From the NCBI GenBank assembly GCA_964575755.1, contig CAZNRH010000001.1:115347-179346 (forward strand): 64,000 nucleotides of DNA, given 5' to 3'. The DNA comes from an uncultured Candidatus Saccharibacteria bacterium (GTDB lineage: Bacteria; Patescibacteriota; Minisyncoccia; Phycocordibacterales; JABMNX01). Of this stretch, positions 1,781 to 63,492 are shown piece after piece (position 1 is the first letter of the stretch; every line of letters begins with the position of its first letter). The notes under the pieces were generated by a model, which was not told the origin of the DNA, did not search any database, and saw nothing but the letters and a program-made list of their open reading frames with translations. The translations under genes were made by a program, and so were the position numbers.

Positions 1781-4700
1781 ATGATAAAAAAAGACACACA
1801 TAATGTACATAATTTTGATTCGATAGCTATTAAACTGGCAAGCCCAGAACGTATTTTAGACTGGTCATTTGGAGAAATAACAAAACCAGAAACTATTAAT
1901 TATCGAACACAAAGGGCAGAAAAGAATGGGTTATTTGACGAGAAAATATTCGGCCCAGAAAAAGATTTCGAGTGCTACTGTGGAAAATATAGGGGTATTA
2001 GATTTAAAGGGATTGTTTGTGAAAAATGCGGAGTAGAAGTAACTCGCTCTATTGTAAGGCGTGAGAGAATGGGTCATATTGAGCTTGCCACACCAGTATC
2101 TCATATATGGTTTTTGCGAGGTATTCCGTCACGTATTGCTCTTATTTTAGGCCTTTCAGCAAGTGATGTTGAAAAAGTAGTCTACTTTGCAGGGTACATA
2201 ATTACAAAAGTAAGTGAAGACGAAAAAGCTAGATTCTTTAAAGAACTAGAGACAGAATACAAAACGAAAGTAAAAGCAGCGACAGATGCTAAAACAAAAA
2301 CAAAACTTAAAGAGATGTTCACTAAAATCAAGAAGGAAATCGACTCTGTTAAAGAGGGAAGTGTTCTTGATGAGGTCTCATATCATACATTCTCTGTTAA
2401 ATTCGGTGGACTTTTTGAAGCCGAAATTGGTGCAGAAGCTATTCATAATATATTTAAAAACTTAGACTTAAGTAAGCTTTCAAAAGAGCTCGAAGAAAGG
2501 CGGGAGAAAGCCGGAGCAGTAGAAAGCGTCAAGCTAAACAAGCGTTTGTCACTCATTAACTCAATGGTTAGTGCAAATGTTCGACCAGAGTGGATGTTTT
2601 TGGTGCGCATTCCAGTTACTCCACCAATGCTTCGGCCGATGGTTGCGCTTGAGGGTGGCCGACATGCATCAAGTGACGTGAATGACCTTTATCGACGTGT
2701 GATTAACAGAAACAATCGACTGAAGAAGCTTATTGTTATCAATGCACCTGACGTAATTTTACGTAACGAAAAGCGTATTCTGCAAGAAGCTGTTGACGCC
2801 CTTCTTGATAACTCAATAAGACATGGCAACACAGCATTTTCTGCAATGAGTCAGTCTCAACGACGACCACTTAAATCCTTGTCAGATTACCTTAAAGGAA
2901 AACAGGGCTACTTCCGTGGAAACCTGCTTGGTAAGCGAGTAGACTATTCTGGACGTTCTGTAATTGTTGTAGGATCTAACCTTAAACTTGATGAATGTGG
3001 ACTTCCAAAACACATGGCTCTTGAGTTGTTCCGACCATTTGTTATTTCTAAACTCCTAAGTAAAGAGTTAGCATACAATATTCGTGGTGCAGGGCGATTA
3101 ATTGATGATGGTATCCCTGAGGTATGGGCAATTCTTGAAGAGGTTATTAAAGGTAAGCATGTTCTGCTTAACCGAGCACCAACACTCCACAGGCAAGGTA
3201 TTCAAGCTTTTCGTCCAGTACTTATAGAAGGAAACGCTATACAGATACACCCACTTGTATGTTCAGCATTTAACGCTGACTTTGATGGTGACCAGATGGC
3301 AGTACACGTGCCTCTTTCAGAGGAAGCACAGCTTGAGGCTAAAGAGATTATGTCTGCAAACCGAAACATTCTAAAGCCAGGAAGTGGTGAAGTAGTAACA
3401 AGTCCAAGACAAGATATTATTCTAGGATGTTACTGGATGACTAAAATGGTTGACGGAGAAAAAGGAGAGGGTAAATATTTTCAAACACCAAACAGTGCTA
3501 TCACCACATACGACTTCAACGAAGTAGGGTTCCGTGCACGCGTTAATGTTATGCCAACAGATAGTGTTAAATACGAGAAGTTTAACGGAGAAATATTTGA
3601 AACAACAGTAGGAAGACTACTCTTTAATAGTGTACTCCCAGGTGACTATCCTTTTATTAACGATGAGATGACAAACAGAAAGATGTCAAAACTCGTTGAT
3701 AATTTGATTAAAAAATATGGACTCAATGAACTACCTGAGATTATCGACAAAATCAAAGAGTTTGGATTTAAATACGCAACACACTCTGGAATCACTTGGA
3801 GTCTGTATGACCTTAATGTTCCAAAAGAAAAAGAAGCAATAATTAAAGAAGCAAGAAAAAAGACAGAAGAAATATTAAATCAATTTAATGAAGGTCTTTT
3901 GTCTGCAACAGAGCGGCATAGGATGGTAGTTGAGCTATGGCTTAAAGTTAAAAATGAAATTGAAGAAATCTTAACAAAGTCACTTGATCCAAATGGGTCA
4001 GTGAGCGATATGCTTGTGTCAGGTGCTCGTGGTTCTACAAGCCAGCTGTCACAGATGGCTGGTATGAAAGGCCTTATTCAGAATACAAAAGGAGAGACTA
4101 TCGAGTTTCCAATTGTAGCATCTATGAAAGAGGGACTTTCTCCTATTGAGTATTTTATTACGACTCACGGTTCAAGAAAGGGTATGACTGATACAGCTCT
4201 TCAGACTGCGAAAGCGGGGTACCTTACACGTCGCTTGTTTGATGTTGCACAAGACGCAATTATTACAGAGAAGAACTGTAAAACAAAAGACAATGTGCGT
4301 ATTACAAGAGAAAGTGCTTCAGGAATCCAGATTTCAGTAGCAAAAGATATATCAGGACGATACTTAGCCGAAGATGCAACTGACCCTAAAGGTAAAGTTT
4401 TGTACAAGAAGGGAGATATGATACAACAAAAAGAAGCTCAAGAGATAGAAGAATCAGGAGCAGAAGAAGTATTTGTACGATCTCCTATGACATGTAAATC
4501 AACCCATGGAATCTGCCAGACATGTTACGGAATTGATATGTCAAAAGGCGAGTTAATAGATATTGGAGAAGCGGTTGGAACAATCGCAGCTCAAGCTATT
4601 GGAGAGCCAGGAACACAGCTTACTATGCGTACATTCCATGCTGGAGGTACAGCTTCAGCTGGTGGAGACATTACTCATGGACTTCCTCGTGTTGAAGAAG

Positions 4701-33720: not shown

Positions 33721-33836
33721 AAGTAAAGTATAGCAAATGGTTCGAATCCTGTCGGGGGTCAACCAAAAGAGCCTTATTTGAAAGGCTCTTAAATCGGGCT
33801 CCGGCGACAGGACTCGAACCTGTGACATCCTCGTTA

Positions 33837-34408
33837 CACTTATCCTATTGTTTCCATTAGGGGTGGACTATATCATCATCCTTTTACACATGAAGTGTGA
33901 AGTGGGATGCAAGGCGCTTCGACCCTGTAAACTACAGGGGCTACTCCCGTAAGGGATAGTCTCTGAACCTTCAATGCACATAAGTGCAAAGCTTGGCTGC
34001 TGATTGCCCACAACATTACTTGCTAGGGTTTCCAGACAGTTCACCTTGTTTTCAATCCATGATTACTCATGAATGCTGCGTTTTCCGCCATGTACTTCTC
34101 TGTAACAATTTGCGCATAGGAGTATGCATCTATCTGCTTCAGCCTTTATTTTCTCCCAAGATCTGGTAAGTCCGCGGACAGACAGAATTCTTTTTGAGAT
34201 GGATCAAGGTGGTGCAAATCAAATGCTTCTGCATAACAACTATATCCACAAAGTTTACATTTACCGCCTTTATACTCAATGACCATTTGCTTCAACTTTC
34301 GTCGACGTTTTGCAACGGCTTTTATTAAGTACTCTCTGCGATCAGCGTACGTTCTTTTATCTGACATAGTATAAGTATACTATGTAAATTAGACGGGAAT
34401 TGTGTTCC
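33837..34408 (-). mobile_element. group I-like self-splicing intron carrying an HNH homing-endonuclease ORF
   Basis: 5' exon ends in U; the intron ends in G; candidate IGS GCAGC (complement of 34074..34078) pairs with exon end GCUGU including a U-G wobble; P2 hairpin CAUGA-GUAA-UCAUG; P7 strands GACUA...UAGUC; P9 hairpin CCUAAUGGAAACAAUAGG before omega-G. Confidence 0.65.
34146..34367 (-). CDS. HNH endonuclease (intron-encoded)
   Basis: 73 aa; CKLCGY ... FDLHHLDP (CxxC plus HH of the HNH motif); lies entirely inside the tRNA intervening sequence. Confidence 0.7.
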   Translation of the reverse strand: MSDKRTYADRREYLIKAVAKRRRKLKQMVIEYKGGKCKLCGYSCYAEAFDLHHLDPSQKEFCLSADLPDLGRK

Positions 34409-34455
34409 ACAGCGAGGCGCTCTACCAACTGAGCTACACCGGAATATATTTTACT

Positions 34456-34502
34456 TCTGGCAAGCAGGTCATCAACTGAGTCGGCAACCTACTTGCCAGA
34501 AT
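34456..34502. other. 10-bp-stem hairpin immediately upstream of the tRNA-Asn 5' end (ttctggcaag...cttgccagaa)
   Basis: Seen directly; T-run on the plus strand after it. Confidence 0.35.
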
Positions 34503-63190: not shown

Positions 63191-63262
63191 CTGCGATTTG
63201 TGACCCTACAGAGAATCGAACTCTGATTACCAGATTGAGAACCTGATGTCCTAACCGTTAGA
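63191..63262 (-). tRNA. tRNA-Glu(CUC)
   Basis: Minus-strand cloverleaf GGCCCTA-TC-GTCT-AACGGTTA-GGAC-A-TCAGG-TTCTCAA-TCTGG-TAAT-CAGAG-TTCGATT-CTCTG-TAGGGTC-A; Glu-type D-arm and 4-nt variable loop. Confidence 0.75.
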
Positions 63263-63492
63263 CGATAGGGCCAATAAACAAGCTGTTAGGTTTTAGTTTA
63301 CAGGTTTTAGCTAAAAATTAAAGCCTTATTAAATACCCCAGATGGTTGGGGCATTTAATATAATACAGTATTTATACATCTGGGTAAATAAATAGATAAA
63401 TTGTAAAAGAAAATGCCCGCCCTGGTTTCCCAGGGCGGGCACGTCGCTAAAATCCTTATTTAAGGAACTAACAAGCTAGGGGGAGGCTTTGA

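Follow-up and report, generated by a model that had tools for sequence, protein, structure and literature searches.

A tRNA-Asn(GUU) gene split at anticodon positions 35/36 by a predicted IA-like group I intron with a frameshifted HNH gene

How is tRNA-Asn obtained from a gene that is cut in the middle of its anticodon, and can the element that cuts it still move? Both questions are raised by a locus in a 64,000-nt stretch of contig CAZNRH010000001.1 (in the following the window, which always means this whole analysed stretch), where two halves of a tRNA gene stand 572 nt apart. A first-pass annotation had read the locus as a tRNA-Asn(GUU) gene interrupted by a group I-like intron encoding an HNH endonuclease, and had regarded such a host as new. 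Our analysis makes it very probable that a 572-nt self-splicing, IA-like group I intron, carrying a recently broken HNH cassette, splits this tRNA-Asn(GUU) gene between anticodon positions 35 and 36. The novelty of the host did not hold. The intron is a further case of a published class, whose description and splicing were reported in 2025-2026, and the same work also covers HNH-bearing copies and the mis-call as tRNA-Thr (Nakagawa et al., bioRxiv July 2025; mSystems January 2026; PMC13011429). All features of the window given below lie on the minus strand.

Host tRNA, splice sites and ribozyme core

The 5′ exon (34409..34443, 35 nt) covers tRNA positions 1-35 and ends in ...GCUGU, and the 3′ exon (33799..33836, 38 nt) covers positions 36-73 and starts with UAACGAGG, UAA being its first three bases. 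When the two are joined, UCCGGUGUAGCUCAGUUGGUAGAGCGCCUCGCUGU to UAACGAGGAUGUCACAGGUUCGAGUCCUGUCGCCGGAG, they give the canonical 73-nt cloverleaf that had been drawn before from the same coordinates and sequences, with the anticodon GUU in the loop CUGUUAA, the identity elements U1:A72 and G73, and a predicted fold of -27.9 kcal/mol. A CCA end is not encoded after the 3′ exon, where the next bases are CCC. Default ARAGORN reported no tRNA at this locus. The first-pass annotation had proposed a tRNA finder with intron detection as a check, and ARAGORN with intron search and linear topology did detect the split gene, but labelled it tRNA-Thr(UGU) and not tRNA-Asn.

The intervening 572 nt (33837..34408) begin and end with G. 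They are recognized as a group I intron by a match to the Rfam model RF00028, and their ends are set by the helix P1, by the final guanosine (omega-G) and by homologues, which puts the 5′ splice site at 34409/34408 and the 3′ splice site at 33837/33836. The 5′ strand of P1 (34408..34413) consists of the exon bases G31 C32 U33 G34 U35 and the first intron base, G+1; within it CUGU never varies, and covariation is seen in the +1 pair. Its 3′ strand is the internal guide sequence CGCAGC (34075..34080), a stretch within the HNH gene's out-of-frame tail. The resulting pairs are C32-G, U33-A, G34-C and U35·G, the last being the sole wobble. Omega-G (33837) is the final intron nucleotide; it is invariant in the last alignment column and always followed by UAA.

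For comparison, 83 non-redundant related loci (the window included) were collected via the HNH protein, and exon boundaries were set in most of them. The samples were the best-scoring 80 of each collection, with at least 560 genome hits and at least 561 viral hits. Split tRNAs in these loci were located with the linear setting of ARAGORN, since the default circular topology missed most of them, and the guide was placed by anchoring on the CANCHRE codons of the HNH gene, a fixed P4/P6 motif having failed for divergent relatives. In all 49 distinct introns with a placed guide, the 5′ exon ends in CUGU, the intron ends in G and the 3′ exon starts with UAA. The guide GCAGC is invariant (49/49), and the base just 5′ of GCAG pairs with intron position +1 in 47/49 homologues, the pair being G-C in 26, A-U in 11, C-G in 5, U-A in 1 and a wobble in 4, with 2 mismatches; G31 contributes an extra P1 pair in 34 of the 49. 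The pairing of GCAGC with GCUGU through a U·G wobble at the splice site, the U that ends the 5′ exon and the G that ends the intron, all noted in the first-pass annotation, are well supported by these counts. In relatives without an open reading frame (ORF), P1 is a small plain hairpin with loops of 3-8 nt, for example GCUGU/C-AAA-GGCAGC (the slash marks the splice site), while in ORF-bearing introns its two strands are 303-352 nt apart. Many of the homologous introns end in ...AUG, ...GAG, ...UUG or ...ACG before UAA, which makes a UGU anticodon impossible.

The match to RF00028 (Intron_gpI) covers 33844..34117 and the full model (1-253) with 72.7 bits against a gathering score of 50 (E = 1.6e-16). 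It is the sole intron hit in the window, and homologous loci score 55-93 bits with the same model. This Infernal/Rfam search had been named as a check on the group I assignment and bears it out; the P2 hairpin, the P7 pairing and the P9 hairpin then listed are all present in the fold. P2 (CAUGA-GUAA-UCAUG, 34058..34071) covaries in 5/5 pairs, with 95.9% of the alignment cells paired. P3 joins CAAGGUG (34042..34048) with CGCCUUG (33910..33916), a pairing that comes from the hand-written fold and pair counts and in which 5/7 pairs changed on both sides. The P4-P5 domain occupies 33998..34038 (P4: 88% of cells paired, 4/6 pairs changed on both sides), and P6 is placed at 33968..33996 by fold and covariation. 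The guanosine-binding helix P7 pairs GACUA (33957..33961) with UAGUC (33866..33870), both invariant in 49/49 homologues. In P8 (33877..33909) the outer stem is 90.9% paired and 5/5 pairs covary, and in P9 (33844..33861), which is closed by a GAAA loop, 6/7 pairs covary. Two further hairpins follow the P7 5′ strand and precede the P3 3′ strand: P7.1 (UCCC-UUAC-GGGA, 33945..33956), present and 100% paired in about 25 of the 49 homologues, and P7.2 (CCCUGUA-GUU-UACAGGG, 33923..33939), in a region where the homologues are too variable to align well. Some relatives have neither of the two. Because P7.1 and P7.2 occupy this position, the predicted structure classifies the window intron as IA-like and not IC3.

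The structure was projected on a MAFFT alignment of the 49 homologous cores, with the 3′ partners slid by 1-3 columns as a control. Standard pairs are formed by 85.9% of the cells, compared with 32-44% for the slid partners and 67% for shuffles; 48 of the 61 pairs changed on both sides, and none of the shuffles matched the observed values (0/500). The covarying helices are P2, P3, P4, P6, P8 and P9. P7 shows no variation and is for this reason uninformative on structure, neither for nor against it. RNAalifold, applied to the sequence alignment, recovered P1, P2, P4-P6, P8 and P9 and not the P3/P7 pseudoknot, hence the structure was written by hand. GCAGC, AGAGACUA, AUAGUCC and omega-G are invariant across the 49 homologues and present in the window.

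Some variation within the family is found outside these elements. A divergent subtype of the tRNA-Asn intron (L016, L028, L030, L040, L046, L050) has ...GGGAUAUCGGUGAA... in place of the usual P3/P4 sequence and falls below the Rfam gathering score, yet it has the same P1, guide and omega-G; it echoes the 'divergent group I introns' of Nakagawa et al. Extra insertions of 50-100 nt in the P5 or P7.2 region occur in some homologous introns (L015 at about 2830-2900, L031, L068).

In 95 complete Patescibacteria genomes, Nakagawa et al. described group I introns at 35/36 in 15 tRNA-Asn(GUU) and 3 tRNA-Asp(GUC) genes, and nearly all Patescibacteria tRNA introns were assigned to subgroup IA by subgroup-specific covariance models (PMC13011429). 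According to the same paper, IC introns make up 81% of tRNA introns and do not occur among those of Patescibacteria, HNH endonucleases are encoded in four tRNA-Asn introns, and the Thr(UGU) label is explained as a tool artefact. Precise self-splicing at 35/36 was demonstrated there in vitro for the tRNA-Asn intron of GCA_016700035.1, with the product sequenced and an omega-G to C control. With this class the window shares the phylum, the host tRNA, the 35/36 site, the IA-type architecture, the Thr(UGU) mis-call by ARAGORN and tFind and, as in some copies of the class, an HNH gene. It differs in belonging to a draft genome, on a contig of 224 kb and apparently outside the 95 complete ones, and in the frameshift of its HNH gene. 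That paper makes no mention of where in P1 the ORF lies, of an overlap between ORF and guide, of frameshifted copies or of free-standing endonuclease genes. New tRNA intron classes had earlier been listed from tFind (Williams, bioRxiv 2020); according to PMC13011429 they include 'Asn.4Ug', which was confused with 'Thr.2Ug'.

The classical IC3 introns of bacterial tRNAs are likewise self-splicing group I introns of the anticodon loop that have a U·G pair at the 5′ site and an omega-G. They lack P7.1 and P7.2 and sit at 33/34, 34/35 or 36/37, whereas the window intron has both hairpins and sits at 35/36, and it comes from a lineage that often carries an HNH gene. The intron of the Azoarcus tRNA-Ile gene lies at 36/37. 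For the other classical IC3 introns the sites are 34/35 in cyanobacterial and plastid tRNA-Leu(UAA), 33/34 in tRNA-fMet and 36/37 in tRNA-Arg(CCU) (PMC13011429). Among isolated phages, the only DNA-level matches were to introns within Flavobacterium phage FpV21's DNA polymerase gene and in thyX of Alteromonas phage AD45. The P3-P7 core of these phage introns is 74-80% identical to that of the window over about 100-140 nt; they are of the IA style and HNH genes occur among them, as in the window lineage, but their hosts are phage protein genes. I-PfoP3I in the IA2 intron of phage Pf-WMP3 serves as a comparison case (PMC3428280).

The HNH gene and the probable gain of the intron

The loop of P1 contains an ORF of 73 amino acids plus stop (34146..34367) with the first CxxC and the HH of an HNH protein, and its position between the 5′ splice site and the guide is as first annotated. 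The ORF and its motifs are real, but a complete gene it is not: homologues have 100-130 amino acids, and the 73 residues are encoded by the first two thirds of an HNH gene of about 102 codons, whose remainder, GLTRSWEKIKAEADRCILLCANCYREVHGGKRSIHE and a stop, lies in another frame. This out-of-frame remainder (34063..34173, GLTRSWEK...CANCYREVHGGKRSIHE and a stop) continues the rest of the typical HNH domain (…SWEKIKAEADRCILLCANCYREVHGG…) past the 73-residue stop, overlaps the guide and P2, and has its own stop codon (34065..34063) in the P2 loop. Joining the two frames yields a protein of 102 amino acids. It has over 670 relatives in the databases, about 100-130 amino acids long, and the best of them (P0001) is 89% identical over the full length. 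In the nucleotide alignment the frameshift appears as a net loss of 4 nt in the stretch 34170..34190 relative to the homologous loci L001 and L002.

The residues conserved in the family are C37, C40, H52, H53, C86, N88, C89 and H94. In the window the motifs CxxC...HH...N...CxxC-H are divided between two frames instead of standing in a single intact one, and Y replaces H90 of the CANCH motif, a nearly invariant residue that at least 90% of 28 aligned sequences keep. The codon differences from L001 comprise 21 synonymous and 10 non-synonymous changes, and because of this ratio we infer that the gene was under selection until recently and that its break is young. With the net 4-nt loss and the H to Y exchange, the window copy has presumably lost its endonuclease function. 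Other members of the family (L038, L041, L049) are shortened as well, at different places. Since the breaks differ between members, decay seems to recur and programmed frameshifting is unlikely; we rejected the latter as an explanation, there being no shared slippery site either.

Across the family, the C-terminal codons (consensus ...G-I-T-Q-L-P) read through the guide, as ACGCAGC, and the P2 5′ strand, and the stop codon falls in or right after P2. At the other end of the gene, a TGGTATACT or TGGTATAAT motif resembling an extended -10 element is found in 50 of 66 distinct loci, in intronic and free-standing copies alike, and in most of these it stands 3-10 nt 5′ of the start codon. The motif may mark a cassette that is self-contained and yields a nearly leaderless mRNA. 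The window has TAGTATACT at 34374..34382, 6 nt 5′ of the HNH ATG, a degenerate copy in which the TG of the conserved TGGTATACT is AG; it sits in a hairpin with a perfect 8-bp stem (34365-34384) that also contains the AUG.

How the intron came to this site may be read from its neighbours. Four relatives with the gene order priA-def-fmt-hpf-grx and PriA proteins 68-79% identical to that of the window have an uninterrupted tRNA-Asn(GUU) at the same place, and no HNH gene was found at this syntenic site in the four. The search for intron-less tRNA-Asn genes in other genomes that the first-pass annotation had asked for is answered by them. In the acceptor, D and T arms these tRNAs match the window exons fully or almost fully. 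Set beside the intron-less tRNA-Asn(GUU) of L174/L175, the joined exons of the window have identical acceptor, D and T arms and 60/73 identical bases overall, and are completely different at position 26, in the anticodon stem and in the variable loop (G-CCUCG...CGAGG-AUGUC). In L025, a host with different outer arms, the exon parts that flank a related intron have the same anticodon arm and variable loop as the window (GCCUCG...CGAGGAUGUC). Position 26, the anticodon stem and the unusual variable loop AUGUC agree with the exon sequence around related introns from unrelated hosts. Such mosaic exons would be the pattern expected of co-conversion during homing. Because the four syntenic relatives are intron-less and the window tRNA is mosaic, the intron was probably gained by homing at this locus.

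The genes around the locus are cellular: truB, fmt, def, priA and the genes for a ribosome hibernation factor and a glutaredoxin. The closest named relatives of the PriA protein come from Kaiserbacteria, Paceibacterota and Parcubacteria, and genomes with related loci are Patescibacteria nearly throughout. On the basis of these cellular neighbours and the nearest PriA relatives, the sequence identifies the window as part of a Patescibacteria genome, Paceibacteria/Kaiserbacteria-like. The sole other tRNA gene within the 64 kb is a tRNA-Glu(CUC) at 63200-63272, which default ARAGORN does find. In the relatives L002 and L174, mobile genes cluster beside tRNA-Asn: in L174 (12159-14131) a serine recombinase gene and a DpnII-like gene adjoin the intron-less tRNA-Asn, and in L002 a GIY-YIG ORF is located just upstream and an IS200-type (Y1) transposase gene just downstream of the split tRNA (1566-1826 and 2620-3294).

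Proposed splicing pathway and alternative readings

Because the intron is homologous to one that was tested experimentally, a well-founded mechanism can be proposed for it. A single precursor would be transcribed, probably from a promoter-like sequence TTGATG-16-TAAAAT (34448..34475), which a consensus scan places with its end 5 nt before tRNA position 1. Transcription would end at a terminator-like hairpin with a short U tract (33765..33790; 9 bp, -12.3 kcal/mol) that sequence and fold indicate 8 nt past the tRNA 3′ end; a terminator scan listed no site at this hairpin. In the precursor, G31-U35 and the first intron base would pair with CGCAGC about 330 nt downstream and form P1, with U35·G at the cleavage site, while the core P3-P9 folds and P7.1 and P7.2 remain peripheral. 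A free guanosine bound in P7 would then cleave after U35; omega-G (33837) would replace it in the binding site, and ligation of the exons would give the 73-nt tRNA-Asn(GUU). The CCA end would be added after transcription, since it is not encoded. The HNH cassette in the P1 loop, with a -10-like element of its own, would be inactivated here by the net 4-nt loss and the H to Y exchange. The intron would thus be competent for splicing and no longer mobile by itself, and it would be retained as the tRNA depends on splicing. For the window organism, splicing is inferred, with the in vitro splicing of the homologous intron as support.

Three other readings of the locus have to be considered. In one, the host is a tRNA-Thr(UGU) and the intron is shifted by two bases in the 5′ direction, to 33/34. 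Taken by itself, the window permits this: both solutions show a U before the 5′ site and a G before the 3′ site, both fold with -27.9 kcal/mol, an alternative pairing of UCGCU/GUG with CAUGGCGG can be drawn by eye, and the intron mode of ARAGORN proposes the Thr name. The comparative data decide otherwise. U33 forms a Watson-Crick pair with A within P1 and the lone wobble is at U35·G; UGU cannot arise in most homologues, where ...AUG, ...GAG or ...UUG precedes UAA; the intron-less tRNA-Asn(GUU) at the syntenic site has the same U1:A72, G73 and outer arms; and the sequenced products of the published splicing assays gave 35/36, the Thr call being a tool artefact (PMC13011429). On P1 geometry, homologue ends and the syntenic tRNA-Asn we reject the Thr host, to which we attach practically no weight, as the first-pass annotation had done from acceptor identity, and we regard insertion of the intron between positions 35 and 36 of tRNA-Asn(GUU) as secure on these comparisons. 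Another reading treats the whole locus as a dead relic, with a non-splicing intron and tRNA-Asn supplied by a gene outside the window. The broken HNH gene would suit it, splicing of this very copy is concluded from its homologues, and just 64 kb of the genome are in view. However, GCAGC, AGAGACUA, AUAGUCC and omega-G are as intact as in the 49 homologues, every helix pairs in the window, the Rfam score is well above the cut-off and the exons give a perfect cloverleaf, which leaves a relic very improbable.

The remaining alternative concerns mobility: the HNH gene would be intact and the intron mobile, the 4-nt gap being an assembly or sequencing error or being bypassed in translation. Outside the gap the gene does look selected (the 21 synonymous against 10 non-synonymous differences from L001), and the deletion is without confirmation from an independent assembly. 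On the other hand, the 4 nt are lost in a non-homopolymer stretch, which is atypical for a read error, the nearly invariant H of CANCH is Y and the TG of TGGTATACT is AG in the same copy, and the shortened relatives L038, L041 and L049 show that decay recurs, with no common slippery site. We therefore consider an intact HNH gene unlikely and prefer a splicing-competent intron in tRNA-Asn(GUU) with a recently broken cassette. Several points weigh against this preference. A search by eye for a P10 helix between the 3′ exon UAACG and the sequence 5′ of the guide gave only GUUA about 27 nt upstream; no P10 is claimed, because the P1 loops of 3-8 nt in ORF-less relatives leave no space for it. A Pfam search with the repaired 102-residue protein returned no family at E <= 0.01, so that membership in HNH rests on the motifs and on one homologue (P0092) with a precomputed PF01844 annotation. 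An exact look-up of the 73-residue product in independent assemblies found none on record, and the 4-nt loss could be an assembly error. Two Logan contigs of the same strain, L088 and L089 (SRR6439372, SRR6439370), which come from independent assemblies, end inside the 5′ exon. A second, intact tRNA-Asn gene outside the 64-kb window is possible. Finally, gain of the intron here is set against loss in the relatives by parsimony only, loss being the less parsimonious. As to the Logan contigs, which were found through the glutaredoxin gene, their first base corresponds to about position 34420 of the window, about 11 nt before the intron, and the breakpoint may be an assembly-graph branch that reflects population variation at the tRNA site.

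HNH genes beside tRNA-Asn in Patescibacteria and phages

The HNH gene always has a tRNA-Asn gene as its neighbour, but the 83 loci reveal that it is not confined to the intron. In 58 of them it lies inside, in the P1 loop of a 35/36 intron. In 9-11 loci an intact HNH gene is found just upstream of a tRNA-Asn with a short ORF-less intron of about 190-245 nt (arrangement seen in L005, L009, L016, L019, L021, L028, L030, L034, L040, L073 and L074), in 3 loci it lies just downstream of a tRNA-Asn split by an ORF-less intron (L010, L012, L046), and in 4 loci it stands upstream or downstream of an intron-less tRNA-Asn (L033, L049, L014, L056); 9 loci were left unassigned to any arrangement. In the published survey, endonuclease genes were counted only where they lie within an intron (PMC13011429). 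In a rough neighbour-joining tree, which gives weak resolution, free-standing genes branch off at scattered points among intronic genes. How close the two can be is exemplified by L009 (2483-3155) and L013 (2429-3049), which are syntenic, with identical tRNA exons and HNH genes that are 77% identical: the cassette precedes the 37-nt 5′ exon in L009 and follows it, in the P1 loop, in L013. The ORF tail of L009 keeps a degenerate copy of guide and P2 (ATTGCACAAGTTCC compared with ATTACGCAGCTTCC). In one locus with an upstream HNH gene, L040 of a Paceibacterota genome, a match to the Rfam LOOT RNA (3336-3459, 71.9 bits against 46.4) lies about 240 nt downstream of the split tRNA-Asn.

In viral contigs the HNH family is as abundant, with at least 561 matches of 45-61% identity; its genes stand free inside phage tRNA arrays, as judged from the best 80 of them (L092-L171, IMG/VR). 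Within 250 nt the nearest tRNA is tRNA-Asn(GUU) in 56 of these 80 loci, while Asn makes up 75 of the 655 tRNAs there (11%). The stop codon of the viral HNH gene usually abuts tRNA position 1. The same arrangement, with the ORF unannotated, is found in an isolated phage, the KVP40-like Vibrio phage VH1_2019 (L172, 701-1060).

Collaborative or trans homing, in which a free-standing endonuclease gene stands beside an ORF-less intron, is known for F-CphI and the psbA intron in cyanophage S-PM2 and for mobE and the nrdB intron of phage T4 (PMC3984707, PMC2790892). In gene positions, a likeness to it is seen in the 12-14 Patescibacteria loci with an intact HNH gene just outside a tRNA-Asn that carries an ORF-less intron. 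Unlike in these cases, the host in the window lineage is a tRNA gene of a cellular genome, and members of one HNH family occur within the intron, upstream, downstream and next to alleles that lack an intron. The homing endonuclease SegB of T4 lies in a phage tRNA gene cluster (PMC2330249), which resembles the placement of the window HNH relatives in phage tRNA arrays. SegB belongs to the GIY-YIG family and not to HNH, and the relatives of the window gene usually touch tRNA-Asn.

Taken from gene arrangement, these observations lead us to propose, tentatively and as a matter that we hold to be nearly balanced, that the HNH lineage is physically tied to tRNA-Asn(GUU) with or without an intron, that its arrangements could represent stages of collaborative homing, and that ORF-less introns may be movable in trans. 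No account of this connection between the HNH lineage and tRNA-Asn turned up in the literature searches, although one may exist. If the proposal is true, the family would display in nature each step by which an endonuclease and an intron with a shared target fuse into a mobile intron. Furthermore, the ORF-less tRNA-Asn introns of Patescibacteria, which are taken as largely immobile in PMC13011429, would not necessarily be so.

For Patescibacteria, such introns mean that a tRNA-Asn gene is missed or named tRNA-Thr by standard tools and that genome completeness and tRNA sets are misjudged, a consequence which has already been published. The copy in the window is a worked example of the homing cycle, in which a recent gain, mosaic exons, a freshly broken endonuclease gene and an intact ribozyme would come together. 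The wider pattern suggests the tRNA-Asn gene as a testable target for an abundant and uncharacterised HNH lineage of phages and Patescibacteria. It could matter more to the field of mobile introns and would offer many natural intermediates on the way from a free-standing endonuclease to a mobile intron.

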